Made by a program: the position numbers and the translations under genes. The notes beneath the pieces are model-generated. The model made no database searches. It was given only the letters and a program-made list of their open reading frames with translations, and was not told where the DNA came from. This document shows positions 1 through 29,158 of a DNA stretch of 32,275 bases, in pieces. Source of the DNA: Jimgerdemannia flammicorona (Eukaryota); NCBI GenBank assembly GCA_003990765.1, contig RBNJ01000358.1, forward strand, positions 1-32,275, written 5' to 3'. Every line of letters starts with the position of its first letter. The stretch's first letter is position 1.

Positions 1-1164
1 TTTTTTAATGGACTCATGTCCCACAGATTTTTATTGGAAGGGAACCTAGACTATATAGGCCAAAACCCTCTCCCACCACCTACCAAGTACTGCTCCCCCA
101 TTAACCTAGACTAGCTATTGTCCAGTGGCTCAACTATGCCAGACACAGCAGGACCTATGTTGGCCTGCACCTCATTCTGCACACCATGCTCTCCCTACTA
201 TCAGGGGAAACCCAATCATATGCCAACAACTGAAAGCACACACCTGAGAACCCAACATATGTACAAGGCCATGCCCAAGCCAAATAGAATAGCCCCCATC
301 ACCCCAAAGAGAATGACAGGTAAAGAAAAACCCTCATCAAAGCACAACATGATGGATAGGACCTGGTTCTCCCAGTTGAGGTAAGTAAAGAACTTACATA
401 TGAGGCAGGAGGAAACCCCCAATACCCCACTACTCAAGCCTGTAGGCCTTGATCACATTGTCATGTCAGCTCCCGGTTCCAGTTGAGTGCAGCCAAGATG
501 TCTGAAATAGGTAGCCTTGGGCCCTCCAACCCCTCCTGACAACTGAGGCCCAACCCTGCTGACCACCAAAAGAAGCCGAGAGTGACACCTACTATCTAAC
601 TATATCACACCAATCAAAAGGCCCCACCGAAGCAGCACCTGTCCCAGCCCGATGACTGCCCCCAGCCTGGTACTCTACTGGTTTACTATTATTGTCCTTT
701 CTCCTATCTGTGATGGCCATCTCTCCTCCCATCCTGACAATACCCAAAAAACAGTCATCTACACTAGAACCATGCTTGCCGGGAAGCTCACCAAAGCCCG
801 AGGGCCCTACCATAGGCACCAAGGACCTGCAGGTAATCTATACTAAGCACTTGATGCCCAAGGTCAACCAACTCTCTATGTAGCCCAAGACATACTGGGA
901 CAACTCCTTGTTGGCAATGGCAAAAGGAAGAAGGTGCTGCACCAAAATAGATATACTCTAGATACAGCCAAAGGTACCAGAATTTGTGAAAAAGTAGAGG
1001 AAGTACCGATCTGACACTGATAAAGGGACAACTCATCACCATTGTCCTCCTCCCACCATACCCCTATAGATATAGCAAACCAACCTAAGGTAGAGGGGGT
1101 AATAATAGAAGAAAGGAGACTTGGAAGGTTGCCTACTAAACCTTGTGACCAGTAAGATAGCAGT
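1..1164 (-). mobile_element. Non-autonomous polyadenylated retroposon (SINE-like / LINE-dependent), copy A; its 5'-most ~15 bp lie at 7611-7625, beyond the hAT insertion
   Basis: Aligns end to end, inverted, with 30555-31726. T-run at 1-6 is the poly(A) tail; AATAAA on minus at 30-35. The 5' head CTCTTTCTCTGCTA.CTTACTGGTCACA resembles the LINE 5' ends in this window. No RT or endonuclease motifs. Confidence 0.75.
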
Positions 1165-1176
1165 CTGCTATCTTAC
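1152..1176. other. Perfect 12-bp palindrome at the hAT left junction (hairpin-type footprint)
   Basis: GTAAGATAGCAG-T-CTGCTATCTTAC. The second arm is absent from the uninterrupted copy B. Confidence 0.85.
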
Positions 1177-1259
1177 CCAAATGAGTCAATTCAAATCAAA
1201 TCCGGATTCAATTTGTCACATGATGGTTCAATCTGAATCTCAAATCCAAAGCCATCTGA

Positions 1260-1505
1260 ATCAACTCGGATTAATCCGAATCACCCCATCCAAATTGTCC
1301 CATCCGAATCACCCATCCGAACCACCCCAATCCGAATCACTCAATCCGAATCACTCAATCCGAATCACTCAATCCGAATCACTCAATCTGAATCACTCAA
1401 TCCGAATCCTCCAATTTGAATCCTCTAATTCGAATCCTCCAATTTGAATTCTCCAATCCGAATCCTCATCCGAATCCTTCAACCAAATCCTCCAATCCAA
1501 ATCCT
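1260..1505. repeat. Left subterminal tandem repeats of the hAT (14-bp units AATCCGAATCACTC, then AATCCTCCAATTTG)
   Basis: Directly visible tandem units; position typical of hAT transposase-binding arrays. Confidence 0.85.
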
Positions 1506-1543
1506 CCATATGACTTATATGCTGGATACATCCACAACACATT

Positions 1544-1608
1544 ACACACACACACATACACAACACACACACATGCACACACATGTACACGCAAACATAC
1601 AAATACAC
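1544..1608. repeat. Imperfect (CA)n microsatellite just upstream of the transposase ATG
   Basis: ACACACACACACATACACAACACACAC... Confidence 0.85.
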
Positions 1609-4180
1609 ATGTCGACAGATCAGTCTTCAACAGTTCACAGTATTGATAATGCTTCAAGTCAAACATCTCTGATAGCTCCACACCTTCCATGCAATCCTCA
1701 CTCCAAAATCTGGCAACATTGTGCTAAGATAGGAGATGATGTTGTTTGTAATTATTGTAGGTAAAAAATTAAGATACACCTATTGACTTGTTTGATACAC
1801 ACATAATATTGTTTCATCCACTCCCATAAACTGCACCAGCCAGAAGTTCAAAATGCTTGGTGGTATGACCTTGAACATAAATTGATACATAAAAGACAAG
1901 TACTCTGACAAAATCAAAAAGAATACAGAGACAAATAAAATCAACATCCAAGCTATGGTGGGTATATTTATCCGATTGCCCAACTATTTCTATACTAATA
2001 ATGCTGTTTAATCAAAAATATTTAGCTATACTCTTTGACAGAATTTCGAAATCAGCTTATTTGCTAGATTGTGTGTACAGACCAGCTATTCACAACCATC
2101 AAGAGTGATCAATTGCATAGTATCTTTGGTCTCCTCAAGTATGATTTATATTTGCCAAGTGCCAATACTATTTGTAAAGATGTCCTGGAGGCCTATAGGA
2201 AGGAGCATAACAATCTCCGCCAGATACTTCAGGTAAAATAAGGGCAGCAGTGACCTTTGCAAGCTGAATTATATAAAAGAGCTCACCAATTTAACCTTAC
2301 ATTCAATAAGCAGAATTTGGCAGGCAAAATTTCATTTACAATCGACACATGAACATTCCCCAATACAATTTCATTTCTGGGCATTACTGGTCATTGAATT
2401 GACCTCGATTGGCAGCTTAAATCTCTCACCCTTGACTTTGTCAAACTTGCTGGCCCTCATTCTGGAGACAATATTGCAGATGCTTTTATTAGTTGTATCT
2501 GGGAGCTTGAGATCACAACTAAGGTAAAAAAAGGGGGGCTTGCCATCAGGTCAGCATTTTGAGAGAAGTCCTTAAACAGAACAGATTTTGTTGGTTATTT
2601 ATTTTCACATAATTCACTAACCGAATATTTCAAGTACAGATTTTGACCATTATGACAGACAATGCTACAAACAACTCAACATTTTTCCAAGCTTTAGCGG
2701 CCAGCCTCAAACAGGAAAATGTGGCCTTTGGTACAGAAAGCTGCTGTGTGCGATACTAGGCCCACATACTGAACCTCACTGTTCAGGACTATCTTATGCA
2801 TATAGACAAAACATCCGAGAGAGGAGGGGCTCTGAGTATAATTTCCAAGCTACGCAAACTGGTTGTGTCAGTCTGATCATCCCTACAACAATGAGACAAA
2901 TTTGCTGTACAGTGTAGGGCAATCAGTTTAGCCCCAAAAGAGCTTATATTGGATGTCTGTATGCATTGGAACTCAACATTTACAATGATCCAGCATGCGC
3001 TGGAGTTTGCTGTAGTATACATCCTTTTTTTCTTCAGTCGGCTGAAGCAACTGTTTCAGATGATGGAAGATTTATTTTAAAAAATTAAAAAAAAAAAAAA
3101 GCCAATAGATTCAGCGATGGCTGCTAATAAGGAAATATGGGCCGAGGCTCTAGGTGAAAGTGAGTCAGACATACTTAGGAATGTTGTCAGAGTTTTGGAA
3201 GTAAGTGGTGGTTGCTCTGGCTCCACACTCATTTTGTCTGCCTCCACACAATGCAATACCTCACTACATATAACTGCCAGTGTTTCAATGATTGTACAAA
3301 GGATATAGTCAAACAAATGACCCCAACAATAAGCTCTGCAATACCAGTATACAACCTTCTGATTGACCAGCTAGAGGACAAGCTCGAGGACAGGCTGAAG
3401 GGTTGCAGTGATTTATGGTTAAGCCCGGATTAGAGAGATACCATGGAGGTTGCTCTAAGCAAGCTCAGAAAATACTACTCCCAAACAGATACCGTCATAT
3501 ACTCAATCAGTACAGATATGTCGATGTCAGCATGTGGCCATTGCCCCTTCCAAAACAGAGAAAACCCTGCAAAAACTCACTCTTCTTTTCTTCGAACAGT
3601 GCTGAACCCATGCTTAAAGCTACAATACCATAAGATCAGGGCTGGGAGCAGCACTTCATTGAGAGAACCAAGCAGACCATAATCGAAGTATACCGGAAAA
3701 ACTATGTACTGCCACAAGGTTCTGGCTGAAGTCCAGACAAATATGCCAAGGGTTCTCTCCTATCCCACATTTACTTCAGCAGAAAGAGGAAGAGGGAGCC
3801 ATCAGTGGAAGAGCTGCCATCAATAGATAAACTCACCATTTATCTCACCAGTGACTGCATGATCCTGCTGGAGGGCATGGAGGTGCTCAACTGGTGGAAG
3901 GTGGGTTGTTAGGTGGGCATTGTCAGGTGGGTATTGGGCTAACTTAACCCACCAATCTAACTACTGCTCTACCCACCAGAGCATGCAGCTGCATCAAACG
4001 GACTTCCCCAGTCTGTATGGTATGGCTCGGGACTATCTGGTGATTCCTGCCTCCAGTGCTCCTGTTGAGTGGGTGTTCTCAGATAGGGTGGACCTCATTG
4101 CCCCAAAGAGGTGTGTGCTGAATGCTGAGACAATCTGGGTGTATATGTATCTGAAGTCTTGGTGGGGCTTGGGCTGCTAA
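1609..4180 (+). pseudogene. hAT transposase pseudogene, about 7 introns
   Basis: BED-finger start SKIWQH..CNYC; KISFTIDT*T..GITGH*IDLDW..HSGDNIA; TDNATNN; RY*AHILNL; LDVCMHWNST; LNPCLKL; LNWWK; dimerisation domain FPSLYGMARDYLVIPASSAPVEWVFS..LKSW. Introns at ~1958-2041, 2233-2313, 2524-2639 (CACTAAC branch), ~3015-3101, 3201-3280, 3516-3599 (donor mutated), 3901-~3988. Multiple in-frame stops. Confidence 0.95.
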
Positions 4181-4332
4181 AATTCAGTGGGTCTATGGAT
4201 AAGTCAGTTGGCCTTGTGGAATATTTAATATCTTTCAAATTAATACCTTTCAAAATAATAAAAAAGGAAAAAAAAAAACCTGAGGACTCGGCCTGGAGTT
4301 TGCAGCCCAAGTGGGGCAGAGTTGGTGGTGGT

Positions 4333-4787
4333 GGCAGAGGGAGCGTGTAGTATTTGCAGCCCTCAGCCAGCAGCAAGGGGCAGCCCCAAGCTGCCAGTGC
4401 CCAGGTCAGTGGGTGGGTCGGTGGGTCGGCAGAGAGAGCGCACAAAATTTGCAGCCCTCCACCAGCAGCAAGGGGCAGCCCCAAGCTGCAAGTGTCCAGG
4501 TTGGGGGGGTAGGCGGAGGGAGTGTGCAAAATTTGTGGCCCTTTACCAGTAGTGAGGGGCAGCTCCAAGCTGTCAGTGCCCAGGTCAGTGGACAGGGTCA
4601 GTTGGCAGGTTGGCAGGTGCAGAGTTGGCGGAGGGAGTGTGCAAAATTTGCAGCCCTCCACCGGCAGCAAGAGGCAGCCCCAAGCTGTAAGTGTCCAGGA
4701 CAGGTAGGGCAGGCAGAGGGAGCATGCAAAATTTGCAGACCTCTACCAGCGACATAAGGGCAGCCCCAAGCTGCCAAGGAGTCCAGG
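4333..4787. repeat. Five ~73-bp direct repeats with G-rich spacers, inside the hAT
   Basis: Units 4333-4405, 4428-4500, 4512-4584, 4627-4699, 4712-4787; consensus ~GGCAGAGGGAGCGTGCAAAATTTGCAGCCCTCCACCAGCAGCAAGGGGCAGCCCCAAGCTGCAAGTGTCCAGG; spacers 22, 11, 42, 12 bp. Confidence 0.9.
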
Positions 4788-4970
4788 GCAGAGGGTGCTT
4801 CTGGTGGTCAGAGGGTGTTTCCGGTGGTCAAAGTCACCAGTTCGGGTCCCACGGGTACCCCAGCCCTGTGCCATAGTACCATACCAGCGGTACTATAGAG
4901 CAGAGATGAGGGGCCGGTAGGGCCCTGCATAATGGCTAAGCTAGTGCTACATAAGAGGCACCTGGCCCAC

Positions 4971-5071
4971 ATAAGACTGCCCAACCCACACAAAATGGCT
5001 GCCTAACCTGTACAAAATGGCTGCCTAACCCTTATGAAAGATTGCCTAACCCTCACAAAAACTGCTCCACC
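4971..5071. repeat. ~21-22-bp tandem repeat (CAAAATGGCTGCCTAACC..) x4-5
   Basis: Directly visible, immediately 3' of the cargo gene stop. Confidence 0.8.
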
Positions 5072-5073
5072 TG

Positions 5074-7123
5074 CTAGTCCCAGGCCTTGATGAGCCTATC
5101 ATCCATTGTGAGTGCGACAACTGTTATGTCCGAGCTCTCCTCGAAGGCGATGGTGCCATTGTAGTCATGTGGTTAGAATAGGATAGCCATGTTGGCCACA
5201 AATGGGACCCCGAAACCATAGGTAAGGTCATACCAGACTTTGCTGCTGTCCTCCCAGGTTGGGCTCTTCCTTTCTGGGATATAAAACATTATCAGGGTGA
5301 TATTGTTGTCTGTGTGTGTGGGCAGAGAAAGGTTGTGCCCGACGTATCCTGATGTGACACGAGTGTATGGTTGGGTGAACCCTTGGCCCAGGACCTCATA
5401 CTACCAGGCTGTGCTGGTGGACACCTGCCCTTGGTCCAGCCCCAGGAGTCCCGGCTTGGAAACCTGCCGAAATGGACAGTAACCAGTTAGTTCTTTTTGT
5501 GTGCGGGGGGGCAGAAACCCCCCAGGCTGCAGCACCCTGAAAAAGCAGAGCTCCTCACCTCATATGGGACACTAAATTGGGCCAAGAATATACATACAGC
5601 TGCACTGAGATCACCACCAAGCTGGCCTGCCATATACTCTACCAATCTGCTCAAAGAACCCCAGATTATAGCTGCCATTGCCACATAGGCCGTGTCATGC
5701 TCGCACGCAGTTTGCTCTTTGATGGCACTTCTAAAGTTCTGATAGGGGTACAGAATCTTGTACATCCCTGGAATTGTATCAAAAAGGGTATGTTGGCAAA
5801 CAGTGTAATTTATCTGGGGAGGGGTTAAAAAAAAAAAGGGAGACGAGTGCGGGGGATTTCGGAACTCTGAAACCCGTGTTGCAGTATACCCAATTCCCAT
5901 CCAAAACCCCCCTCCTTGCTTTTTTTGCCCCCTCTTTCCTGCCACCCAGTATTTGATGCAATCCTCACAAATCTTGTTGATGTGGTAGCAAAGCTCGTCA
6001 CCATAGAGGTTCCTTACCACCATCATAACTACCTCTCTGTATTTATTAATAAAGATATGGTTCTCTTCATCGTTGATTACTCCTGCTGGCCAATAGATCT
6101 CTTGGTTAAGTACAATTGGCTCTGATTCAAATGTAGACCCCCAATCCTTAATGATGATGCTAGTACTGCTCATGCTGAACATCTTGCCCTTAAATTTCTC
6201 TATTTGATCAGACACCGGACATGGTTGAACTTAGGTAACTTTGAACTCTCCTTTCCAATAGAACTGAGCCCTGATCTGAGGGACCAAGATAAGTATGTGG
6301 ATGGGTTGTGTGCAGACAGGTTACATGCGGGTGGGTTGTATATGAGCAGGTTGCATGTGGGCGGGTTGCATGTGGGTGGGTTGCGGGTGGGTTGCATGTG
6401 GGCAGGTTGCATGTGGGTGGGTTGCATGCGGACAGGTTGCATGTGGGCGGATTGCGTGTGGGTGGATTGCATGGAGGCAGGTTGCATGCGGGTGGGTTGC
6501 ATGTGGGTGTGGGTGTTTTTTAGGGGGAGACCACATAAAATTGAAATTAAATAAAATATGAAGATGGGTATTTCAGAAAAAGAGCATGAGTGAGTGAGTG
6601 AGTGAGCTGTATGCCGATGAGTTGTACACTGATGAGTTGCACACCAACGAGTTGCATGAGTTGCATAAGATTGCTCATAAAGGCTTGCTTCTATTCCTTT
6701 TGAGACCTCCACCATGTGATGTATTGACTCAATAGCTCAGCCACCAAAGGCATGCTCTGCAATATCTGCCAGCCTTTCTTCATCTTAACCAGATATTGCG
6801 AATAAAGTCAGCAGATCTTGCTATAGAGCTGTGGATCCTAAGAAAAGTATGAGGTGAATTGGGTCATGCTGGGGAAGTTTAAATAAATACAAGTAAACAA
6901 GTGGTGGCTGAGTGAGCAACCTATATCTACTATTGACTGCTCCAAAAAGGCTGCCACATACATAGCTGTGAGGTCTGTGAATTCTGAGGTCTGAAGGGCC
7001 ACTGTGAGTTATTGCTGGAATTCTCCCTCATTCTCGCCATTGCTATCACTATCACCACCACAACCACCATTGCCCCTTTGGCTCTCGATGAGCAGCTTGT
7101 GTGCTGTCCATATGAGAAAGAAT
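5074..7123 (-). pseudogene. Multi-exon cargo pseudogene of unknown function inside the hAT, convergent with the transposase
   Basis: The ORF at 5487-6215 resolves into exons joined by phase-compatible GT-AG introns: 6838-6920, 5814-5945 and 5464-5558 (AACTAAC branch), plus less certain ones at ~6276-6640 and ~5274-5347. Spliced product includes IRAQFYWKGEFKVT*VQPCPVSDQIEKFKGK...CEDCIKYW|INYTVCQHTLF...FSVPYE|VSKPG...; last exon RKSPTWEDSSKVWYDLTYGFGVPF...LIKAWD*. Start exon not located. Confidence 0.65.
6300..6510. repeat. 15-bp minisatellite (GTGGGYGGGTTGCAT)n, probably intronic in the cargo gene
   Basis: Visible tandem units; related units at ~6614-6670. Confidence 0.85.
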
Positions 7124-7410
7124 CTAACATTGTCAGCAGAGAGTGCATTTCCACCTCGAATACTCCCTCTTTTGATGATCATTGCAGGGTGAAAAATGAG
7201 TAGACTGGACCAACATATGAATTAAGGGCTGTTGTTTTGTTTGCTCGTGATGCAGCAGGAAAGAACAAAGAAAAAGAATAAAGAAAAAGAACAAAGAAAA
7301 GAACAAAAGAAGAAAGGGAGCAAAAGGAAAGGGTGATGTCACCAAAGTGCAGCAAGAAAAAAAAAACAAGAGTGAAATGAACAAAAGAAAGGGTGATGTT
7401 ACCAAAGATT

Positions 7411-7610
7411 TCAATCCAGATGGATCAATCCAGATAGACCAATCCAGATGGACCAATCTGGATGGACCAATCCGGATGGACCAATCTGGATCAATCCAGA
7501 TGGATCAATCCAGATCAGATCATGAGACCAATCCAAGTTGATTCAAATCCATCACATGACGAATCTGAATCGAATCTCATCTGGATCAACTCCATCTGTT
7601 TAGAGCACTA
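7411..7610. repeat. Right subterminal repeats (14-bp AATCCAGATGGACC units) and right TIR of the hAT
   Basis: Tandem units 7411-7520; reverse complement of 7550-7600 aligns with 1177-1226. Confidence 0.85.
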
Positions 7611-7773
7611 GTAGCAGAGAAAGAGGCACTGTGTGTGAATCATCTTTGGGGTATTCCTGTTTTCCATTATCTCTCTAGCTATTACTAATTGCCAGAATAT
7701 CCACTTTATTGCTTTCAATTTTTGGGCTTTCATACAATCAACCTTCAGGTGATATGTCTGATAAATTAAGGTG

Positions 7774-7798
7774 CCCTAACCCTAACTCTAACCCTTAA
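7774..7798 (+). repeat. Short degenerate telomere-like (CCCTAA)4 tract
   Basis: CCCTAA CCCTAA CTCTAA CCCTTAA. Confidence 0.6.
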
Positions 7799-7969
7799 AT
7801 GATCACCAGTTTATTAGAATAGTTTGAAATAAAGGTTAGTAACTCCTACTAACTCTTTTTTTTTTTTTTATAGTCACTTAGACTCTGTCTTTATTACTAG
7901 TCTAAGAATAAATATACATCATTCCAACCTACTATCCAATCCCCACAGGGGGGCCCCTCTCTACTTCCT

Positions 7970-10900
7970 TACGAACGAAAATCACCCTTTCACCAACTAT
8001 CCCAACTCTCCCCCCACTTTGCACACAGATTTTCTCCACCAAGCAGTACCTCTGACCACCCCATATCCCCCAACCCAGCCATCAGCCTGTTAGGGTGTCT
8101 TCCATAAGCCTATGCCATCACAGCAGCCGGTCTCCCAAGCTCTGTCTCCTCCCATTCTCAAAAACATATAGCCAATGACTGGCCAGCCCCACCCAAATAG
8201 CCAAAGCCTAATCTAAAGTAAGCCACTCCTTCCCTATCCCCCCTACCAATCTATCCCTCAAGTTCTCCCACCACTCCCGTACTTCATCATCCCTACCCGG
8301 CACCCCCAAGTGATCCCCAATTGTCTGCCAAAAATCTCCCAACACCTCACACTCTCTTAGCCAATGTTCTGGTATCTGTACATAACCCCCCTTCTGCTCT
8401 ACATTATGGCACTCCTCACAGTCAAAGCAACCCCCTACAACAAGATGCCCTGAGTGAAAGTTGAGCATAATGTTCCTCTACAGCATATACCACCAGACCA
8501 CCCAGTACTTTGGCAGTAGCTATGTTCTCACTACAGCACTCCAGGTCCAAACACCATGTCAGTTCCACTCTTCGCCAATTCTAACTCCTTGTCAACTGCT
8601 AGGCCACAGATCCTGGCCTGGTCCCCTTTGGCATTCCATTCTATCACCAATATTGAACTCAACTAAAGGAGCGCCACCCAGCAGTATATGATCCCATCTC
8701 CACATTGCCAGGCCCCAATCCTCCTTACCTTCATTCCCCTGCCAATGAATACCAATGCGGTGCACTCCTTCTGCAATCCCCCACCAAAATCCTTTATAAT
8801 GCAGTTGGGCAGTGTTCTGAAGCCCAACCAAGGAGAGAAGATCACCAGTTGAGCCCCTTGGTGATGTCCACCTCTCCCATACCTTCTGTAACAGAGGAAC
8901 CCATCCACCTCCACCGCCCTCTTCAGTCACCATGCTCACAAGCAGTGTAACTGTTTTGGGAAGTCAACCAGCCCAAGACCGCCTCTTGCCACTGGTAGGG
9001 ACAAGGTCTCCCAACTAATCTGACTCTGCCTGCCAGCCCAAATCCATCCCTTTGCCAACTTCATCAATCACTTCACTACTCAGGCTGGGAAGTTCAGATG
9101 ATATGCCAGATACCACAACTTTGGCAGCCAGTAGACATTCAAAATTGAGACCCGCCCTGCCAGAGAAAAATGTCTTCTCCCCCAACTCTGCAGAGCCTCT
9201 TCCCAGATTCCAATTCTCTGCTCCCACCAAAGTCTGGGCAGAACTGACCCATAGACTGACAAGTAGATACCTAAGTACTGCACTGCTTCACCGGTGGGGA
9301 CGATTGTTCCTATAACTTCCCCTCCCACCAGGCTGTTACCAAGCACCATTGTCTCACACTTATGCCAATTCAGCTTAGCTCCAGAGTGCTCCTCATACTA
9401 CTCCACAGTCCTCTTGAGCTTCTCAACATCAGCAATTGAACCCAAACCCACCACCATGTCATCAGCAAAGGCCCAACCTTCCAACCTATGCCAAAGACAG
9501 AGAGCCCCACTATTCTCTGCCTAATTCAGTCCATAAGTGGTTCCAGGGAAAGAGCATACAAAATGGGGGACAATGGATCCCCCTGGGGCACCCCCCTACC
9601 CAAGAGAAATGCTACCCCTCTATGGCCATTACATGTGAGTGCGGCCCTACTCCCTTCCAGTAGGCTGACCATTGTTGACTAGAATCGAGGCAGAATCCCC
9701 ATTCTATCCAAAACTTTCTCCAGCCAGACTCTTTGCATCTGGTCATATGCCTTCTCCTGGTCCAAGAAGACCAGATGCCCATCCAGTCTACAGGCCCTTG
9801 CCTCTTCAATAATGCCATACACCCAGGCAGTACCATCCCTGATGAGCTGACCACTCACAAATCCCCTCTGCTCAATACCCACGACTTGCTGGGCCACCTT
9901 CTGTAGTCTTGCCACCACCACCTTAGTTACCAACTTTCTGTCCATATCTAGCAACATTATTGGCCACCAGTTCTTCCAATCCTCCCACCTTCCTTTGTTT
10001 TTGTAAAGCAGTATCACCAGCCCAAGGTCCTGCTCCCCCACCCACCTCTCTGTCTGTAGAATAAGGTCACACAATGCTGTCATCTCTCCCATCACCCCTG
10101 GGACTCCAACCATTTGCTTCCAAAAGTCCCAGGGCAGACCATCCTCCCCAGGTACCATACCAGGCATTGTTGCGGCAAGAACCTGGTGGATCTCATCCTC
10201 CTGTACAGGCATCACCAGGTCCCTTAGCCCTTTGACTTGTGGTGGGTGCCAATCCTCCAATATTCGTTCAATTGTAGTGGCATCTGCCCCACCCTCCTTG
10301 TCACTCCACAATCCACTCTATCTCTCCTTCAGCGATCCAAGAATACCCTATATACCATGCACCAGTACACCATCAGAGTCCAATACCCCTTCCCACCGTT
10401 GCTGGACCCACCTCATCCTAAGGGCCCTTGTAAGAAGCTTGGAAGGCCTTTCTTCTTCCTCCAGATTCTGCCAGCAAAGACGTGCTGCCAAGCTCTGTAC
10501 CCTTGCCTCTTTCTCCTCCCGCAGCACCTGTTGAAGTTCCCCAACCTCTATTTTTGCCCTCATTAATCTCCAATCATCTTCTCCCTCCAACATCGTCAGC
10601 CTTGCCCACTCCTCCAGGAGCCTCATCAATCTGGCGGAGGCCCAATGCACTCTTTGTTTTTGCTGCTTCCCTGCCTCCTTGCCAGTCTCCCTCCAGTAAA
10701 TCCTGGCCATTTCCTTCATCCTCATCCACCGAGTCCCAACTGAGGCCCCTTTCTGCCTCCAGTTCTCCACTCTCAGTTGAATGTCTTTAGCCTACTCATC
10801 CCACTGGGTCTTGTCATCTAACAAAGAGAAATTGAGGCACCAATGTCCAGGCCCATCCCCACTTCCCCCAAAGCACCCCTGTCTTAAAAGCCCCCAGTGA

Positions 10901-11577
10901 TCTGACCATAGACACCATTCCACCTCCAATGACTTCCAAACATCTAGTCCCCAGCAGCAGGCCATCAAAATCCAGTTAATTCTAGTCCCCAGACCCCCTG
11001 CCCAATGTGTATAGACCCTCCTACTCCCCCAGCACTCCCTTCCAGCATCTAATAGTGCACTTAGTCTTTCTACTCCCTCCCACGCTACCAGTTCTCCACT
11101 CCTGCTCTCAGCACCTCATCCTCCATCTGTTCTATCTAGCAGTATATCTCTAACCATATTGAAATCTCCCCCAAGTACATCCACCCCAGCCTCTGCAAGT
11201 AATCCACTCTCCTGTAAGCCTTTCACCCAATCTACTCTCTCACCCCGTACCACAGGGCAGTAGCAGGAGCCAACTGTAACTGGCCCCCAGCCTGCCCAAA
11301 TCCACTCTCTCCAGACCAGTCTCTCTCTCCAGCACTGCACATTCTATATCTCCCCTCTGCCTTTCCAAACCAAAATCCCAACCTTGCCCTTCCAAATCGC
11401 CACATCTCCCCATTCCTTCGTCCATTCCAACCAATCAGAGACATCTTCGCACTGGACATCCTGCAAGAGGAAGAGATCGGCCTCCAATCCCTTCATCCAA
11501 GTAAAAATGTTCCTATGTCGAGAAGCACCCTGTAACCCATTCACATTCAAAGAGAAAATATTGGTTGTACTGTTCAT
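7970..11577 (-). pseudogene. LINE ORF2 (APE endonuclease, reverse transcriptase, C-terminal Cys/His motif), disrupted; 3' end approximate
   Basis: IFSLNVNGL, FLLQD, GGDFN (APE); PGEDGLP, WPIMLLDMDRKL, EQRGF, LDQEKAYD, GVPQGDPLSP, AFADD, YLG (RT); CEEC..EHWLREC. Confidence 0.95.
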
Positions 11578-11603
11578 ATTGATGATATATGTGATGTCAT
11601 CAA

Positions 11604-11663
11604 TCAGGCTCTACTGCTCTTTTTTTTTTTTTTTTTTTTTTTTTATAGTCAGGCTCTACTGCT
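11604..11663 (-). mobile_element. Ultra-truncated retroposon insertion (poly(A)25 plus 4-6 nt) with 15-bp TSD
   Basis: TCAGGCTCTACTGCT (11604-11618) - C - T25 - ATAG - TCAGGCTCTACTGCT (11649-11663). T-run plus ATAGTC equals the 3' terminus of LINE family 1. Confidence 0.9.
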
Positions 11664-13675
11664 TCATGCTCATCTCCTCCTGCACCTTGTCCAGATTATG
11701 TTCCATAGCCACCTCCTCCTCCTCTGCCCTCTGAGCCTCCAATCCAGCCAGCAGTTCATTCATCTCTCTATCAGCCTTCTCCTCGAACTCCTCTTGGTAT
11801 TCGATGCATGCCTCCTGCTAGAGCTGTAGTCCATGACACTTGTTCCAGCAGTATTCAGCCCTTTCTCCAGCAACGACTACCAACTCCACCTCTCTCTCCT
11901 TATCCACCTCATACCCTTCCTCCTCTAGGTACACTGCAAGAATTTCCACCTTCAATGCCTTCATTATGCCATCCCCCTGCAGTATCCCTGCCCAATACTC
12001 ATCACTCATCACTCGCAAGTCCACTTCCCCCAACTCTTCCACCACAAGATTATTCATCATTCGGCACATCCAAAGCAAATTCCCCACCTCTTTCCCCCCC
12101 AGAGTCGCCAGCCTCCCTCCATCCAACATTGTGGTATCAGCTCCAGCACTTGCAGACTCATCCCATACTTCCAGGACATCCACCAGTTCCTCCTCATCAG
12201 CTGCCACCACCTGACTCCCATACGCTACCTCTGGAACTCCGAATTGCACCCTCTGGGCCCCTCACATTGACACATCTTCTACCACCCTGTTCCGGGAAGC
12301 CAAGCCATGCCTGATGAGAGGGGTAGGGGTAGGGGAGCCCACCCAGTTCTCCTCCCATACCTCCAGTGTACCATCTGCATATGGGTCCTTCCCAGCCTTC
12401 ATCTTGTCCTCCCCCACCTCCTTCTTGTCCTTCCCCTCCCCCTCGCTGGCCCAGACACTCGCTTCAGCTCCCCCAGTGCCCTTCACCTTGCTTGCCTCTC
12501 CCAGTGGTCTGCTATCCAGCTTGGCCAGCAACTCCTTCTGTCTCTTATACCCCTGAGTCCTCTCCCACTACTCCTTGGTCATTCAAATCTGCTTTCCATC
12601 CACTATCTCCAAGTGTGTCGCCTCCTCAAAAGTCTCCCAAGCCTTCACTCACCTCTCTACAGTACCACCCAGCTCTTCTAGTGCTTCCAATAAATCCTCC
12701 TCCTCCTCACTTCCCTTCACCCTTGTCACCTTACACAGAATCGCTCCCCAGACCATCACTGAAGACCAGTTCTTGCCTTTCCAGTGGCTTTTTTCCCAGC
12801 CAGCCGAATCCTCACATCCATGTCACCAGTCCTGAGCGAGGTCCCTTCCCAGACCCTGAACCTGATGTCCACCACCTCTCCATATTCTGCTATGAAATCC
12901 TCAACTCTCTTCCTCATCTCCATTATCGTCACCATCAACACTCCTTTCACCAGCAGTTGGACCACCCTGGGGTCCTACTTCAGGTACTGTGCCATTGGTA
13001 CACACACCTCCCCAACCACCAATCCAACCTTCAGTGTCTCCTCCAGCAGTGCTGCCTCCTCAAAACCTACCTCCACTTCTTCTAGTCCCTTCAAAAACTT
13101 CACAGACACCACTCCTGCCACCTGCTTAGTGATGAGCCCCAGCACCATTTTCACCATCACTGCCAGGCCCCGGAAGCACAGTGTGACTGCGAATGTCAAA
13201 ATCGATTTTTTGAGTAACGGGGCCACTGCCAGACCCATTACACCATTCACCAAGTCCCCTTGTCTTCTAAGCCTCAGCTGCTCAGTCTCACCATTGGCTG
13301 TTACATCTGGATTTTTTTCCAGATTGACAGTCCCATCACCATCAGCAGTTACACCCCCCCCAGCCACTACTCCCCCAGCTCTACTGCTCCCCCTTCCAAG
13401 GGCTGCTCCCCCCTGCGCTGTCGCCTTCTCAGTCTCCTTGCCCTTCCTCAGCCAGCCCTCCAGCCCTGACACCTGCTATCTCCCCTTCACTATTTCCATG
13501 AAGCTTGCCCTCCCAGATCCTGATCCTCTGCCACCTCCTCCACCCCTTCCATACCACCTGCCAGCAGGCCCCTCATACCTCCCCCCAGGCCTGGACCCCT
13601 CCCCACCTGCTGCCAGTCGAAAGCGCTTAGGCCACCCTGCCCAGTACACACCTCAGGTTGCCTGTTGGTTGCCAT
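11656..13675 (-). pseudogene. LINE ORF1 (Gly-rich N-terminus, RRM-like, acidic helical C-terminus), disrupted
   Basis: Starts MATNRQPEV; EYGEVVDIRFRVWEGTSLRTGDMDVRIRL; collinear with ORF1 of the second LINE; ends MSMKQ*. Confidence 0.85.
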
Positions 13676-13981
13676 ATTGTTAGTCTCTTTTTACCAAAAA
13701 CGAAGTTGAAAGTGCCTTCCAAAGGTTGTGTAACCTGAATGGTACTGGAAAGAGATGCCTACTAACTCTTACAAAAACACAAAAGATACCATATCAAAAT
13801 AACAGATCTGACTATACTATATTCACTATAAATTATGCTATAATATTTCTTTATATATATATCTAAGAGAGCTTTGAGCATAATGTAGTTTATATTCAAT
13901 TTAAAATATATTTTATTAGAAATGCTTAAGTACAATTCTCCTTGTTATTAATTACAGAATAAGGATAACTGTAATATAAAT

Positions 13982-13993
13982 GACAAGACTATA

Positions 13994-14081
<88 letters not shown>

Positions 14082-14094
14082 CAAGACTATATCT
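13982..14094 (+). mobile_element. Solo poly(A) insertion (TT + A81) with 15-bp TSD
   Basis: GACAAGACTATATCT at 13982-13996 and 14080-14094 flanking TT and an A-run at 13999-14079. Confidence 0.88.
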
Positions 14095-14612
14095 CTTAAG
14101 AACTATATATAAATATTATATTTGACATAAGTAAGTATTTTTAATATCAATGCTCAATACTATATCTATCATTAAGCTGTAACTGTAAATTATAATTAAA
14201 ATACATAATTATATTTTTCTCTAGGAAAGGACAAAGAAAAGCTTTTCTCTACAGAATATAATTCTATAGTAAAAGATAATTTAATAGTATTTATAGTTTC
14301 CACCTACTCATTAGAGTTGACAATTCTATTCAATTTTCAGATTCACAAATTTTTTTCATTCTTAAGAATATTATTATTATTAAATCCTGAAAAATAAAAT
14401 TTATTTCATTCTATTAAGAATAAATCAATTAATATATAATTGGATAATATCAATTCTAAAGAATAAATAGTTAAGATATCTCATTTAAGACAATAGTAAT
14501 ATAGATAGAGATATTCTATCATATAAGAGTATTCTATTACATCAGTCACATAAACAGTTACATAATTACTATAATTGAAATAGATATTTAGCCTATAATT
14601 TAAGGTTAATAT

Positions 14613-15802
14613 TGTAATATACCTGACTCAATAGAGACAAATTACAAGGTTGGAGATTGATATAGTTTGGCTTGAGCCCTCAGTTACTTTATTAAAAAGC
14701 AATAAAATATTCTAAAATTTCTAATATCCTTGTTGGTATATAGTAGTATAATAGTTAATCTGAATATAATAGTCAGTTTCTCTGATTGTGTGATAGTTGA
14801 TTTATACAGATTTTCTTATTGAGATAATTCTTAGATATAGTAGCAATTTGTATGAAAATCTCTATATAGTATAATGATCTTCAAAAGTATGCAATTTCTA
14901 CATGATAATCTCTGTTTAGTATGATAATCTTGATGTATAATGATCTGTATAGTACAATAATCTCTATGGTATAGCAGATTTCTTATACAAGTTTAGTAGA
15001 TATGTAACTCAATTTGGTATAGATTCTCCTAAATTGGTAGCTTCTTCTGGAAAATAACTCAGATAGTATAAATTCTCCTACTTACTAGGAACAGTACTAG
15101 CAGTGGATTCTTCTTACTAGGAACAGATGACTCAGATGCAGATAATTCAGATAACTTGAATAGCTCAGATGTCATGGATTCTTCTTGAATCAGCATAGTT
15201 CTCTGAGAATACAGTGAATAACTTGGGAATAATAAACTTCTTTAGGCTTATCTGACAAGTGAACCAAAAATGTAACAGGCTCTTCTTTGTATTGAAAAGT
15301 GGACCAGAGTGAGAAAGGAGCAAAGCTCACAATCTTCTAGTAGTGGCTGTAGAGCAGATATTTCTCCTAAGTATTATAATCCTTCCTAGATCAAGTGGCT
15401 TTTGACAGACATATCTCTCAAAGTATAGTAGATAGACTTATCTTTTGCTTTATATTTTAGAACTGAGGTTTATTTACTCTTATCTCTGGGGTATTTTATA
15501 TATTGTGGTTGCTATCTGGTTGCTATGTAGCTAACTATAGATTTGCTATTTGTGGTAAGTTGTATAGGTCTAGTATAAGTGTGCAGATCTAGTATAGGTA
15601 TACAGGTCTAGTATAAGTATACAGGTCTAGTATAGGTATACAGGTTCTGTACAGATATACCTTATCTAGTAGTCTGATTATTTATACAGTTTTCCATAGC
15701 AATAGTTGCTGAGTTACTATACTATGTTATCTGGTTAAGTTGCTAATTATTCACATCATCTGACTAAGTTATAATTTAGGTGATATGTTTTGGTTTATTA
15801 TA
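14613..15802 (-). repeat. 3' LTR of the gypsy element
   Basis: Direct repeat of 29159-30323; contains a 19-bp tandem repeat AGGTCTAGTATARGTATRC at ~15565-15650. Confidence 0.93.
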
Positions 15803-15847
15803 TCAGCCCCTACTAAAGGATGGTCTGTCCTCAGACTATCCTTTAGT
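15803..15847 (-). other. Short purine-rich tract (PPT position) preceded by a 16-bp stem-loop
   Basis: On minus: ACTAAAGGATAGTCTG-AGGA-CAGACCATCCTTTAGT then AGGGGCTGA abutting the LTR. Confidence 0.6.
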
Positions 15848-16355
15848 CATCATTTTAATATGCATAAATATCTTCTATATCAATATCTGTACTGTTATCT
15901 TTATTATCTGTACTATGGTCACTCTATTCTAGGAGTTCTTTTTCTTCTAAGAATAGGATTTTGACAGCATTGATGATGTTCTGATAGATGGCTAGATTCA
16001 TTCCTCATACATCATATCAGAGAAATTGTGTCTGTATCAGTACTGTAGAGTTTCATTTGTAAAGGGTATAGAGCCTGTCTGTAGCAGTAATATCTCTTCT
16101 TGATAGTCCTGTAGTATTTCAGATATACATTTATTCTGGAGCTGAAATATTCTGCAATTGTTCTCCAATTGCATAGTGGGTCTGGAGTTGATGGATCTGT
16201 AACAATTGTCCGACCAGGACAAGATTCTCTTGATGAATCTGGATTTTCTGGAGGGTATTCCCATTGACTTCTTAGAATTGGGGTAGGAAAATTAGCAGTG
16301 ATTGAAATGAGCTAAGGATGAGGGTCTGGAGGTAGTTGTCAATTCTCTGATTTAT
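15843..16355 (-). pseudogene. Accessory ORF downstream of integrase (171 codons, unknown function)
   Basis: Single frame without frameshift from ATA (inferred ATG) at 16355 to TAA at 15843: NQRIDNYLQTLIL...QTHYAIGEQLQ...TGLSRRDITATDRLYTLYK...GMNLAIYQNIINAVKILF plus an acidic tail. Internal stops are revertible by single transitions. Confidence 0.6.
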
Positions 16356-17682
16356 AATATAGAGAGAGATATATCTTGAGGTAATTGATGTATACTAATG
16401 TTCTCAGAGTTTGTCCATCCATACTTCTTAAATAGATACTGATCTCTCTGATGTTATGTACAAGATAAGATCCTTCCCACTTGGGCTCCAGTTTGGTAGC
16501 AAAGTTTGTTTCAATCATACTTTTCCAAACTAGTACTTGATCTCTGATCTTGATCTTCTAATTCTTTTGCTTCCAGTCATAGTACTTCTTTTATCTTTTC
16601 TAGGCCTTGATAATTTGAATCCAAGCTTGATTATATAACTATTCTGTCTTCTTGAGGAGGTCTTTGAGGTTCTCATAGTCAGCAGTTCAGGTTTTCTTGG
16701 CAAACATCATCTTAAATAGCTTTTATTTGGTAGAAGTAGTAGAGGTGTTCTGAATTTTCCATAGGTTCTTAGGTAAGCAGAGGTCCCAATTGGTAGAATT
16801 AACTTGGGCAAGTCCTTTCTTAATAGTCTGGTTCATTCTTTCTGTCATACTATTGGTCTGAGAGTGATATAATATGGTCTGTTTGAGGTGGATCATGTGA
16901 GTTTAGGCATAACTTGTGATTATATTATTAATGAATTCTGTGCCTTGATCAGAGATAAGTTCTTCTGGGAGTCTATATCTGAGTGTGAGTCCATGAAGAA
17001 GGCCTACAATGGTCAGAGTATCTGTGATTTCCATTGGGAAAGCCTTGGGCCATTTGGTCAGATATTTTACAAGTATAAGAATATACTTATTTCTTCTTGA
17101 TATAACTGGTAGAGATCTAATTACATCTACTCTCTATCTCTGAAAAATGTTGTCTGATAGTATGATTGGTTGTAGAGATACTTGATAGTTCTTCTTTTCT
17201 TGATACTTCTGGCAGATGTTATATTTTTTGAGTATATCTTGAACTTGTGTTCTGAGATTGTACTAATATTGATATATTGTTTATAGCTTTTCTTCTATAT
17301 TCACCTGTCCTTGATAGACTTTCTGATGTTCTTTTTGGATGAGATCTTCTTGTGCCTTGATAGTTTAAGAAGCTTCCTTTAGAGTGTAGTTCCTTAAGAC
17401 ACCCTTTCTCTGGTTCATTGGGGTTGGCAGGAAAGTATATTAACATTATTGTAAGCTTTCTCTGCTTTGTAGATGATAGTGATTTTGTAATCCTGAAAGA
17501 TAAGAATTCAGTGGGCTAGAATACCAGTAGGATCCTTGTAGCCATTTGAGGGCTATATAGTCTGTTATCAGAGTGAATCTTTTTCTGATGAGGTAATACT
17601 TGAACAGAGTAACTGCTCATATAACTGCAAGGCATTACAATTTAGTGCTGCCATAGTTCATACTGCTGATTGGTAGCTTGGC
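16339..17682 (-). pseudogene. pol: Gypsy pol 3' part: RNase H C-terminal half and integrase with GPY/F module
   Basis: NYGSTKL*CLAVI*AV..FTLITD (RH); LISDQGTEFINN, YHSQTNSMTERMNQTI (IN core); KLEPKWEGSY (GPY/F). Confidence 0.92.
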
Positions 17683-17744
17683 TTTTTTTTTTTTTTTTTT
17701 TTTTTTTTATAGTTTCTTGGACTGCCTTTTATTACTGAAGTCTA

Positions 17745-20700
17745 TAGATCTAACAATACAATGCCACTCCCACTCTCAGCCAATGCCCTGTGGGCCCAAT
17801 CCTACCCTCTCAACCCTCTCCTGCCTGAGCACCACCTAGTCACCTACTATCCGAACCCTCCTACCACTCTTCTGGGAGATACACCACACCAAACCCCTGT
17901 GGTTCCCCCCTCTCAGCCTCCAATCATGCCACTAGCCATTCAAAATGTCCAAAAGCAACCATTCCCATCATGCCACCTTGTCCCCAACCCCAACCTGATA
18001 CCCTCCCTCAAAGACATGAACCCAATGCCCTGCCAACCCAACCCACATAGCCAAAGCCCAAACAAGGGTCAGCCATTCGTCCCCAACTCCACCCATCAGT
18101 TACTAGCGGAGCTCTCCCCACCTCCCCCCTATCTCTCCCTCCAAGGCACGCAGCCCTACCTAGTTCATAATACCTTTCCAAAACTCCTCCAAAACCTCAC
18201 ATTCCCCAAGCCAATGTTCAGATGTTTGCACCACTCCTCTCTCTTGACCAATATTGAAACAATTCTCACACCCGAATTCTCTGCCAGCCACTAAGTGTCC
18301 AGACTGATAGTTCAATATCACATTCTGCCATAGGACATGCCACCATACCAACCAGAACTTGGGAGGCAGCCACTGCCTCACTCTTTTGCTCCAGAGCCAG
18401 AGTCTATTCCAATCCCACTCCTCACCAATTCCAACTCTCTGCCAGGCTTCAGGCTACAGGTCTCCACCCAGGCCTCACAGACACTCCAGACCCTCGCCTA
18501 GCTGAAAGTCCTCCACCGGAACACCACCCAGGAGTAGCCTGTCCCACCGCCACATCTGCAGTCCCCAATCCTCCTCAGCTTCATCACCTCACCACCTAAG
18601 CCCAATCTTCTTAGCACCATCCACTACCCTCCACCAGAAGCCAGTGAACCGCATCCTCCTACTCCCCTCCATGGCCACCATCATGAGCAGGTCACCTGAG
18701 TCATCATGTGGGGAGTACCGAACCTCCCACAACCTCTGCATGAGCAGCACCCACTCCCGACCCTGAAGCTCGCTCGCCCTTCGCAACCACCAAGCTCTCA
18801 GACATAGAAGCTGCTTAGTAAAGTCCACTAAACCCAGCCCACCTCTTTCTAAGGGCAGTGTGAGCACCTCTCAACCAACCTGACTTCGCTGCCCTCCCCA
18901 GATCCATGACCTCGCCATCTTCAACAACTCTTTGACCACCCAGGTTGGGAAATCCAGATGATACTCCACATACCACAGCTTTAGCATCCAGTACACATTT
19001 AGCACCATCACCCTTCCAGCGAGAGACACATGCTGGCCTCCCCATTGCAGCAGAATATTTCCCTACTCCAGAAGTTTACAGTCTCACCATGCCCGAGGAA
19101 GTAGAGATCCAAACACTGAGAAATAGATCCCCAAATAATGCACTAGTTCACCAGCCAGTACCACTGTCCCAATGACATCACCACCAACAATACCAGTGCC
19201 CAGCACCAGAGTCTCACACTTGTGCCAGTTTAGCTTAGCACCAGAACCCCTCTCATACCATTCCACAGACCTCTGCAACTCCCCCACATCTGCCAAGGAG
19301 CCCAGCCCGACCACCATATCATCTGCAAAGGCCCCCACCTTCCAATTAATCCCTAAAATGTCCAAACCCCCAATCTGATGCTGAATTATGTCCAGTAGAG
19401 GCTCCAGGGAAAGGGCATACAATATGGGTGACAAGGGGTCCCCTTGTGGTACTCCACATCCCAGGGGAAAGGTCACCCCCCTGTGGCCATTAATGACCAA
19501 TGCCACCTGACTGTCCTCCAAGAGGCTGATCAATAATCCTTGGAACCCTGGGGGGATTCCAATCCATTTCAGCACTCCCTCCAGCCATATCCTCTGCACT
19601 CTATCATAAGCCTTCTCCTGGTCCAGAAACACCAATCTGCCATCCACCCCTGCCACCCAGACATCTTCAATCACTCCATGAACCCAAGCTGTCCTGTCTC
19701 GAATCAACTGACCACTGACAAACCCACGCTGCTCCACACCAAGCACCTGCTGAGCAATTCCTTGCAGCCTCATCACTAAGATCTTTGTCACCAGTTTGCG
19801 GTCCATGTCGAGAAACATAATCGGCTGCCAGTTCTTCTAGTCCTCTCTCCTCCCCTTATTCTTGTAGAACAAAGAGACTAACTCTAGGCGCTGTCCCCCT
19901 ATCCAGGCACCAGACCGAAGAACTCTATCACACATAGCAGTCATTTCCTCTAGCACCTCGCCCACCCCAGCCATCTTCCACCAAAAATCCCAGGGGAGTC
20001 CATCCTCTCCTGGGGCTGTCCCCTTACTTGTCGAGGCCACAACCCTGCGAATTTCCTTGCCACTCACTGGGTCCCCCAATGTCCCAAGTCCCATCGCAGA
20101 GTCTGGGTGCCAATCTCCCAGCTACCTCTCAATGTCCAGAGCATCCATTCCTCTATCCTCCTCACTCCATAGATTCTCCTACTGGGTTCTCAATAGGCCC
20201 AGAATCACTGGAGACCCTACCACTAACTCGCCATTCGCGTCCAGAACCCCCTCCCACTATTGCCTCATTTGTCGTACTTATAACAACTGCGACAAAAACC
20301 TAGTAGGCCTCTCCCCCTCCTCAAGCCCCTGCCACCGCAGGCAGGCCACCATTCCCTACAACTTCACCTCCTCCTCCCTTCATAGCACTCCTTTAAGCTC
20401 ATCTACCTCCCACCAGATTCTCACAATATGCCAATTAGTCATGTCCCCATCCTCCAGCACACCTGCCCATCTCTCCATAAGTGCTGCTAGATGCTGTGAG
20501 GCCCACAGCACCCTCTGCCTTCACTGGGTATACTTCCCTTTCCCTGTTTCCCCCCAATACCCCTGAGCAGTCGCCTTCAGTCTTCTCCAGCAGTCCCTAA
20601 TCCCCAGGCCTTGTTCTCACCACCTACTGATATTTCCAACCACCTCTGTTTCCCAACCTTCCCACAACACTCTATCCTCCAATAAGGAAGAATTTAGCTG

Positions 20701-21437: not shown

Positions 21438-21468
21438 ATTGAAAAAATGTTATAATAGTGACCCCAGC

Positions 21469-23391: not shown

Positions 23392-23472
23392 GTTGATAGT
23401 CACTTGACACCGAAAACATTGTAAAAGTATTGCCTGAGTTCTTATGTCACCTGAATGTTACCGGTGAAAGAT

Positions 23473-26760: not shown

Positions 26761-26779
26761 TCTTGCCTCAGTAGTCAAA

Positions 26780-27090: not shown

Positions 27091-27099
27091 TATATAGAT

Positions 27100-29056: not shown

Positions 29057-29138
29057 AATGATAGAGATTGGTATTGTATCAAATATATCCAGTTTGACTG
29101 TGGGTTCTTGAGCTGAAAAGTTATATCAATTTGAAATC

Positions 29139-29156: not shown

Positions 29157-29158
29157 AA

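Follow-up and report, generated by a model that had tools for sequence, protein, structure and literature searches.

A dead hAT insertion from Jimgerdemannia flammicorona encloses a spliced second gene from a candidate TET/JBP-like family

Introduction

What is the spliced gene that lies beside the transposase gene of a hAT-type DNA transposon in Jimgerdemannia flammicorona, and did it belong to the transposon? The question arises from contig RBNJ01000358.1 of assembly GCA_003990765.1 (positions 1 to 32,275, forward strand), a stretch of 32,275 nucleotides (nt) that was analysed as a whole and is called the window here. A sequence-only reading of these letters had seen, inside the hAT element, a second gene that it took for either a captured host gene or a dedicated accessory factor.

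We report that an autonomous hAT, now old and dead, is inserted in the window, and that the second gene belongs to a small fungal protein family whose features point to the TET/JBP-type 2-oxoglutarate (2OG)/Fe(II) dioxygenases. The reading that we prefer, and that we regard as rather likely, is that the hAT family behind this old, dead autonomous insertion carried a TET/JBP-like dioxygenase gene as internal cargo. By analogy with described systems, the second gene is probably an accessory, anti-silencing gene.

Results

The second gene has relatives in a small fungal protein family

The second gene lies on the minus strand, convergent with the transposase gene and between the two subterminal arrays of the element, the arrangement that the sequence-only reading had recognised. 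This strand holds an open frame of 247 amino acids (aa) at 6230-5487, plus further pieces. When the product of this open reading frame (ORF) was compared with 1.84 billion representative proteins using phmmer, four matches were obtained at E ≤ 0.001: P0001 (E 9e-19, 36% identity over 110 residues), P0002 (2.4e-6), P0003 (1.2e-5), and P0004 (2.3e-5). P0002 is a full-length protein of 374 aa. In tblastn searches with these four proteins, the window was matched at the second-gene locus only, with E values of 2e-25 for P0001 and 3e-22 for P0002, the latter in two segments.

Few other members were detected. P0005 is 46% identical to P0002, and a word-index protein search with P0002 returned only P0002 itself and P0005. 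The same kind of search returned P0002 only with profile A2, and no match with the window ORF. A metagenome scan with profile A3 gave 178 pattern matches, among which two relatives were confirmed (contigs L001 and L002), with a 48%-identical relative encoded. In a search of sequencing runs, a single soil metagenome was listed (share of the words, 0.12), and no RNA run.

The homologue on L001, a soil-metagenome contig, is intact: its four exons comprise 359 codons, with no stop but the terminal one, and all three introns of the window gene are found at the same aligned positions as those of L001. Intron 1 follows …K-K-E-F in L001 and …K-Q-A-F in the window, where it is in phase 0. Intron 2 follows G-Y-T-x5 in L001 and occupies the same position in the window, in phase 1 in each, and intron 3 follows …R-L-Y-L in L001 and …V-P-Y-E in the window, in phase 0 in both (phase was compared between the two genes for introns 2 and 3). 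After splicing, the window product is 26% identical to P0002 (91/345 aligned residues) and 30% identical to the spliced L001 product (97/325). Because HMMER finds relatives, the best at E 9e-19, and because an intact homologue has the same intron positions, we take the second gene, on these comparisons, to be a real gene and no chance ORF, and a member of a small fungal protein family.

The two metagenomic contigs, which come from different records, share 99% identity over 2.7 kb (L001 1-2716 versus L002 156-2870). Their differences are almost all C>T/G>A, several of them at CpG, and include TGG>TGA and CGA>TGA changes that create stop codons in the L002 copy of the homologue. These differences look like the signature of repeat-induced point mutation (RIP), or of 5-methylcytosine (5mC) deamination, left on a gene that is repeated in a fungus of 34% GC. 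The near-identity of the two contigs, together with the transition-type changes, suggests that the gene family leads a repeat-like, methylation-exposed life elsewhere. The family is seen in at least two fungal backgrounds, namely, the 44%-GC, CpG-depleted host of the window and a 34%-GC soil fungus, in which it is repeated and transition-mutated. No transposase was found on the L001 and L002 contigs, the contigs of the intact members of the family (P0002 and L001) being 1.7-3.7 kb long.

The window copy has four exons and is non-functional

The gene model in the window comprises four exons and three introns (6753-5074, minus strand; 1083 nt, 361 codons; Table 1) and stays in frame across all exons. 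The sequence-only reading had counted 5-6 exons and had drawn the gene up to 7123, and both figures have to be reduced. The three introns are those shared with the intact L001 gene. In 6754-7123, no relative aligns by tblastn and no ORF has a Pfam match, while the Met at 6753 is the residue that pairs with the initiator Met of P0002. An alternative in-frame ATG is present at 6783. Because nothing upstream, as far as 7123, has a relative or a domain, the gene is considered to end at about 6753 (or 6783).

This copy is heavily damaged. Four internal stops interrupt it, at codons 21 (TAG, in exon 1), 40 (TAA, 6231-6233, in exon 2), 252 (TAG, 5401-5403, in exon 4), and 328 (TAA, 5173-5175, in exon 4), ahead of the terminal TAG at 5074-5076. 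The donor of exon 1 reads ATGAGC, where the intact homologue reads GTAAGT, and the donor of exon 2 is non-canonical (AG). The acceptor of exon 2 is CCCTCAG, and exon 3, whose flanking introns are at L001 intron positions, has the donor GTGAGG and the acceptor CAG. Finally, the window copy has an Asn where the distal iron-binding His is expected. Because of the four nonsense codons, the two damaged splice donors, and this Asn, the dioxygenase-like gene of the window is non-functional; the earlier description of a spliced gene that is now a pseudogene was correct.

Intron 1 contains two tandem arrays, one of a 15-nt unit (GGTTGCATGTGGGTG, ~13 copies) at 6295-6530 and a second, short one at 6603-6654. 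These arrays account for its swollen length, the corresponding introns of L001 measuring ~80-100 nt.

Four lines of evidence point to a TET/JBP-type dioxygenase

Four lines of evidence, each of the weaker kind, converge on a resemblance between this family and the TET/JBP-type 2OG/Fe(II) dioxygenases. The first is the conservation of putative iron-binding residues. All four members compared have an H-x-D motif, which reads T-H-V-D in P0002 and P0005, V-H-V-D in L001, and T-H-T-D in the window copy. The three intact members also share a distal H-G-[ST]-T. The 2-His-1-carboxylate triad that TET/JBP enzymes typically carry on a double-stranded beta-helix (H-x-D/E ... H) can therefore be read in the intact members, and the window differs by its Asn. 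The family alignment also conserves the A-G-x-R-G…G-Y-T and G-G-x-F-Y-N…Y-G-x-G-V blocks.

The second line comes from the ESM Atlas. The best cluster for P0002 had a score of 0.96, with 209 of 256 features shared, and the nearest clusters are in Basidiomycota and Mucoromycota. Among the best 30 clusters, 12 carry PF12851 (Tet_JBP), 6 carry PF20515 (2OG-FeII_Oxy_6), and 12 are without a family. We treat this result as a lead, as the family shares within the clusters are low (15-16%). The window ORF itself had a best Atlas score of 0.89 and gave no lead. A literature search with PF20515 as the term found no paper, and the description given here for this family is the name used in the Atlas.

The third line is structural. 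Two AlphaFold models were used, with a mean pLDDT (predicted local distance difference test) of 38.2 and 39.1 and a pTM (predicted template modelling score) of 0.39 and 0.25 for models 1 and 2, respectively. When model 1 was compared with 48,161 Protein Data Bank (PDB) representatives using VIA-align, ranks 1-4 were all TET/JBP-family enzymes: NgTET1 (Z 5.0, 146 residues aligned, root-mean-square deviation (rmsd) 4.4), TET2 (Z 5.0, 180 aligned, rmsd 4.5), CcTet (Z 4.8, 188 aligned, rmsd 5.8), and CMD1 (Z 4.4, 165 aligned, rmsd 4.7). Ranks 5-13 were occupied by nine other 2OG oxygenases (Z 2.9-3.5). In a second look, the Z values were 5.2-5.4 for CcTet and 5.1 for NgTET1, and the entry after them had 2.6. 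It is the specificity of this ranking, and not its score, that is suggestive.

The fourth line is the likeness to proteins described by Kojima 2025 (PMC12730594, Biology 14:1741), a paper of which selected parts are used here and below. Judged by eye, the family aligns block for block with the PE-type proteins in the rows of its Table S1. The order and spacing of the blocks agree, from an N-terminal strand (E-I-V) through S-A-G to G-G-x-F-[FY]...Y-G...N...H-G-[TS]. The H-to-H spacing is 52 residues in P0002 (hand count) versus 51 in one PE-type protein, and ~11/34 residues of the G-G...H-G block appear identical between P0002 and one Tuber PE row. To the eye, the window's G-G-x-[MF]-W-x-G-I-G-[WY] block is also like the PU rows of rusts, and the C-terminal half is nearer to the PE rows.

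Several results weigh against this assignment. Searches of Pfam, PHROGs, and PDB sequences gave no relevant match at E ≤ 10, so the earlier remark that the gene has no recognisable domain still holds. P0002 has no Pfam family at E ≤ 10, and is matched by neither the PF12851 nor the PF20515 profile; P0005, the L001 exons, and the window exons had no match to Tet_JBP, PF20515, or any other 2OG oxygenase, and showed only unrelated rows at E ≥ 0.1. Pfam is thus blind to the window's family, and the likeness to the Kojima sequences was judged by eye. By the same eye alignment, the Arg that follows the distal His in PU-type proteins is H or N in the window's family. The confidence of both AlphaFold models is low (mean pLDDT 38 and 39). 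Foldseek returned no match at E ≤ 0.001 for either model, and its CcTet rows for model 1 had E values of only 0.7-1.6 and template modelling (TM) scores of 0.16-0.18. Model 2 had no TET match in Foldseek or among the best 50 VIA-align rows, which were 40-55-residue local matches only. VIA-align also warns that a Z under 8 can reflect a common arrangement. Enzyme activity is, moreover, predicted for the window's family, as it is for all the transposon-borne fungal types. As for sequence matches in the PDB, the best row was the ribosomal protein eL43 (E 0.25-0.39), which was taken as chance.

These results feed the strongest rival explanation, according to which the gene is not of the TET/JBP type but encodes another 2OG oxygenase, acting on a protein, RNA, or small-molecule substrate, or a non-catalytic fold. 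The link with the transposon would then have another basis, for instance that of a DNA-binding accessory protein. This rival would explain why no significant match to PF12851, PF20515, or any TET in the PDB was obtained, why the fold evidence comes from one model (pLDDT 38, Z ~5) that the second model did not reproduce, and why the basic residue after the distal His of PU-type proteins is absent by eye. However, the four TET/JBP-family enzymes with solved structures take precisely the first four places among 48,161 chains, and nine further 2OG oxygenases come after them; Tet_JBP is present in 12 of the 30 nearest Atlas clusters, and the H-x-D...H triad is conserved. The block-by-block likeness to the PE-type proteins, reported in the parts of Kojima 2025 (PMC12730594) used here to be structurally similar to CMD1, NgTET, and CcTET, also argues for the TET/JBP assignment. 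We consider this rival unlikely, though it deserves to be kept in mind.

The surrounding element is a decayed autonomous hAT

The limits of the element were set by comparison with a paralogous empty site in the same window. The left flank (4-1163) has an inverted paralogue at 31726-30564, 78% identical over 1168 nt, and at 30555-30580 this paralogue runs without a break across the hAT insertion point (…GTAAGGTAGCAGAGAAAGG…). Because the paralogue is continuous where the window sequence is split by ~6.45 kb, the element is taken to extend from 1164 to 7610 with a 7-bp target-site duplication (TSD), or to 7609 with an 8-bp TSD. The sequence GGTAGCAG is present once in the empty site, and the window junctions read (G)ATAGCAG on the left and (A)GTAGCAG on the right. 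The element thus has a TSD of the length known for hAT (8 bp, or 7 bp in the hAT7 families of Kojima 2025, PMC12730594), the two lengths being indistinguishable here. The terminal inverted repeat (TIR) is weak, TCTGCTATC... matching the reverse complement of the right end, TAGTGCTCT..., in five of the first eight bases (with the boundary of the 8-bp TSD); the element is old and decayed.

One of the nine ORF pieces scanned against Pfam, at 3863-4180, matched PF05699 (Dimer_Tnp_hAT) with an E value of 7.2e-10 and 39 bits against a cut-off of 21.4. The transposase therefore has the C-terminal dimerisation domain of the hAT superfamily, and a BED-like CxxC...H motif and motifs of the hAT catalytic core were read by eye. 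Together with the TSD and the empty site, this domain confirms the original identification of the element as a hAT.

Of 25 matches to AATCYRRAT in the whole window, 20 fall within the two subterminal arrays (11 in 1199-1494 and 9 in 7413-7562), which enclose both genes. The core of these arrays, AATCCGGATT, is a CpG-containing palindrome, of which one undecayed copy is found at 1199-1208 (the palindrome call spans 1192-1215). Through decay, most copies now have CpA/TpG forms (AATCCAGAT, AATCTGGAT, AATCCGAAT). Between the convergent 3′ ends of the two genes, the gap is occupied by repeats of ~93 nt and by a 22-nt array, which could serve as a terminator or give rise to small RNAs, or simply reflect repeat expansion.

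The second gene and the hAT share their decay

It should be noted that the association of the dioxygenase gene with the hAT is drawn from position alone, in one copy of the element, which also weighs against the reading that we prefer. Alternatively, once the hAT had inserted, a different mobile element or a rearrangement at the locus could have brought in the gene, and the gene would then lie outside the hAT consensus. Such an independent nested insertion is made thinkable by the single hAT copy examined, by the ~3.4 kb that separate the transposase stop (4180) from the right array (7412), which is unusually long for a hAT, by the many tandem arrays in this 4180-7412 stretch, and by the occurrence of such genes in many superfamilies of transposons, each of them able to nest, according to the parts of Kojima 2025 (PMC12730594) used here. 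However, none of the 16 inverted pairs in 1-8200 flanks the gene, and neither 5074-6753 nor 4190-7400 is bracketed by inverted or direct repeats; thus no TIR or TSD belonging to the gene itself, which the sequence-only reading had named as the sign of a nested element, was found there. The six ORF pieces of 5074-7178 and the piece at 7009-7221 have no Pfam domain of the transposable-element (TE) type (the scan did not extend to 4190-5073), and no ORF for a further transposase, a helicase, or another TE-type protein was found in the scanned parts. The two genes are also alike in their decay, with comparable stop densities (4 in 361 codons for the dioxygenase-like gene versus at least 9 in roughly 700 for the transposase) and similar observed/expected ratios of CpG (0.31 versus 0.22). 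In addition, as far as these parts of Kojima 2025 (PMC12730594) describe them, TET/JBP genes in transposons have no termini or TSDs of their own. We judge a nested insertion to be improbable.

The remaining rival, in which a cellular gene of the family was transduplicated into the hAT and travelled as a passenger of no benefit to it, agrees with the absence of a transposase from the short (1.7-3.7 kb) contigs of the intact members P0002 and L001 and with intron positions conserved as in an ordinary gene, but we give it little credence, as the coding region is complete, from start Met to stop with all introns, and no fragment, as the other fungus has at least two copies that are 99% identical, one with transition-type nonsense, which is repeat-like and not single-copy, and as intact TET/JBP ORFs across many transposon families are taken as an element function in the parts of Kojima 2025 (PMC12730594) used here.

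Table 1 Features of the hAT element and its second gene in the window
Feature	Position	Strand	Basis or remark
Left TSD, ATAGCAG (GATAGCAG if 8 bp)	1157..1163	.	Compared with the paralogous empty site
Decayed autonomous hAT-type DNA transposon, ~6.45 kb	1164..7610	+	Paralogous empty site
Left subterminal array, 14-nt unit, core AATCCGAAT	1199..1508	.	TRF (Tandem Repeats Finder), 17 copies
hAT transposase gene, multi-exon, pseudogenised	1609..4180	+	Pfam domain and motifs read by eye
Four ~93-nt GC-rich repeats (the "hairpin array" of the sequence-only reading)	4333..4719	.	Direct-repeat family D4, 73-81% identity
22-nt tandem repeat, 3.9 copies, just 3′ of the stop codon of the dioxygenase-like gene	4977..5060	.	
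Exon 4: H-x-D (T-H-T-D), G-x-W-Y...Y-G-F-G-V block, position of the distal His	5074..5463	-	Aligns to P0002 residues 244-356
Exon 3 (G-M-Y-K-I-L-Y-P-Y-Q-N-F-R ... V-P-Y-E)	5559..5767	-	47% identical to P0003, 51 aa, E 2e-13
Exon 2: N-terminal half of the domain, including A-G-K-R-G...G-I-G-Y-T	5867..6275	-	36% identical to P0001 over 110 aa
Intron 1, 403 nt	6276..6678	-	Contains two tandem arrays
Exon 1 (M-P-L-V-A-E-L-L-S-Q-Y-I-T-W-W-R...), one in-frame TAG	6679..6753	-	Aligns with the P0002 N-terminus and L001 exon A
Right subterminal array, same core motif (AATCCAGAT, AATCTGGAT, AATCCGGAT)	7412..7570	.	TRF, 7.7 copies
Right TSD, GTAGCAG	7611..7617	.	Compared with the paralogous empty site

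The window is CpG-depleted and almost wholly repetitive

The 32-kb window is eukaryotic and consists almost wholly of repeats. The observed/expected ratio of CpG is 0.15 in the window, 0.28 in the hAT element, and 0.01 in the AT-rich repeats. An excess of TG/CA is present in the GC-richer elements, and none is seen in the AT-rich repeats. TCG-specific hypermutation, the pattern of Pucciniomycotina, was considered and is not evident, since TCG (77) and CGA (92) are not the rarest of the NCG/CGN trinucleotides.

The AT-rich repeats (14000-17700 and 23500-30500) have a GC content of 31-37% and almost no CpG. They include four direct-repeat blocks that are ~14.5 kb apart and 83-89% identical (for example, 14655-15798 versus 29194-30319), as well as a gypsy-like ORF at 23690-24025 that was read by eye and is without a Pfam match. 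Two diverged retroelements resembling long interspersed nuclear elements (LINEs) are found on the minus strand, at 8000-13700 and 18000-23400, with RVT_1 matches at E 4e-8 and 1e-24, respectively. They have a strongly C-rich plus strand and long ORF1-like frames that are unannotated (536 aa at 21658-23268). Beside the 4-1163/30564-31726 repeat, additional inverted matches between 13252-13756 and 31759-32264 suggest a larger repeated unit.

Discussion

Systems in which a hAT carries a TET-like second gene have already been described, and the sequence-only reading's proposal of an undescribed two-gene system has to be given up on this point. In the parts of the paper used here, Kojima 2025 (PMC12730594) reports that TET/JBP genes are carried by DNA transposons of eleven lineages in fungi, hAT included, and describes 20 hAT7 families with a 7-bp TSD in six Puccinia species, all of which encode a PU-type dioxygenase. 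The genes are proposed there, as a proposal only, to counter methylation silencing or C-to-T hypermutation. The earlier analogy between the second gene and an anti-silencing accessory factor was apt.

The window element resembles these TET-bearing hAT7 elements of Puccinia (Kojima 2025, PMC12730594, as far as used here) in being a fungal hAT with a transposase gene and an internal TET/JBP-type gene, located in a CpG-depleted, repeat-rich genome, and its TSD may also be 7 bp long (GTAGCAG). It differs from them in three respects. The Puccinia elements carry the PU type, whereas the window protein is nearer to the PE type by eye. In those hAT7 families for which a gene order is described, the TET gene is upstream and in the same orientation, whereas in the window it is downstream and convergent. 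Finally, the hAT7 termini that are printed (CAACGGTGGG...) are unlike the ends of the window element.

The comparison with the PE type also leaves a difference. According to the same parts of Kojima 2025 (PMC12730594), PE-type genes are found in transposons of Pezizomycetes and Agaricales, with none reported there in a hAT, and the hallmark of the type is H-x-E instead of H-x-D. All four members of the window's family have H-x-D, and thus lack this hallmark.

CcTet (structures 7vpn and 8jkk) is likewise a transposon-borne fungal dioxygenase and is among the best matches of model 1 (Z 4.8-5.4, 173-196 residues aligned), but it has no sequence similarity to the window's family that is detectable by HMMER and belongs to another transposon superfamily. 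Such CcTet or AG-type TET/JBP genes were reportedly described in Kyakuja-Dileera-Zisupton transposons by Iyer and colleagues and by Chavez and colleagues, both in 2014. A functional parallel is provided by VANC of the VANDAL (Mutator-like) elements of Arabidopsis, a sequence-specific DNA-binding anti-silencing protein that is not an oxygenase. Here too, the transposase gene of a DNA transposon is accompanied by a gene for a factor that demethylates the element's own copies, but VANC is unrelated in sequence and comes from another host kingdom and another transposon superfamily, so that the analogy is functional only.

If the hAT family did carry a TET/JBP-like dioxygenase as cargo, the enzyme of active copies would have oxidised 5mC on the DNA of the element itself. 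This oxidation would have countered silencing by CpG methylation in the host and slowed the C-to-T decay that ensues. The CpG in the subterminal palindrome AATCCGGATT suggests what the direct benefit may have been, since this presumed transposase-binding motif could have been kept unmethylated.

What may be new in this locus is a dioxygenase lineage that is PE-like but has H-x-D, that is found in a hAT, and that is placed downstream of the transposase gene and convergent with it. One could go further and, tentatively, see in the family a fourth, unnamed lineage of transposon-borne TET/JBP-like dioxygenases, PE-like, with the ancestral H-x-D and invisible to Pfam, which would be present in two or more widely differing fungal genomes and would have been acquired by a hAT independently of hAT7. 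In this proposal, which we would not yet back over its alternatives, the CpG in AATCCGGATT would make the transposase-binding ends a direct target of self-demethylation.

A DNA-demethylating enzyme borne by a transposon is a clear form of counter-defence against epigenetic silencing, and for fungal hAT elements it has been described only since late 2025. The locus studied here suggests that this habit reaches a dioxygenase lineage that curated models do not see, another arrangement of the genes, and probably a host outside the six Puccinia species. Should the members of the family prove catalytically active, the few 5mC-modifying enzymes known so far would be joined by a new group of compact proteins (~360 aa), and the idea that transposase-binding repeats containing a CpG are tied to self-demethylation could be put to the test. 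For annotation, the "unknown" second ORFs of fungal DNA transposons merit a check for TET/JBP enzymes that goes beyond Pfam and includes structure.

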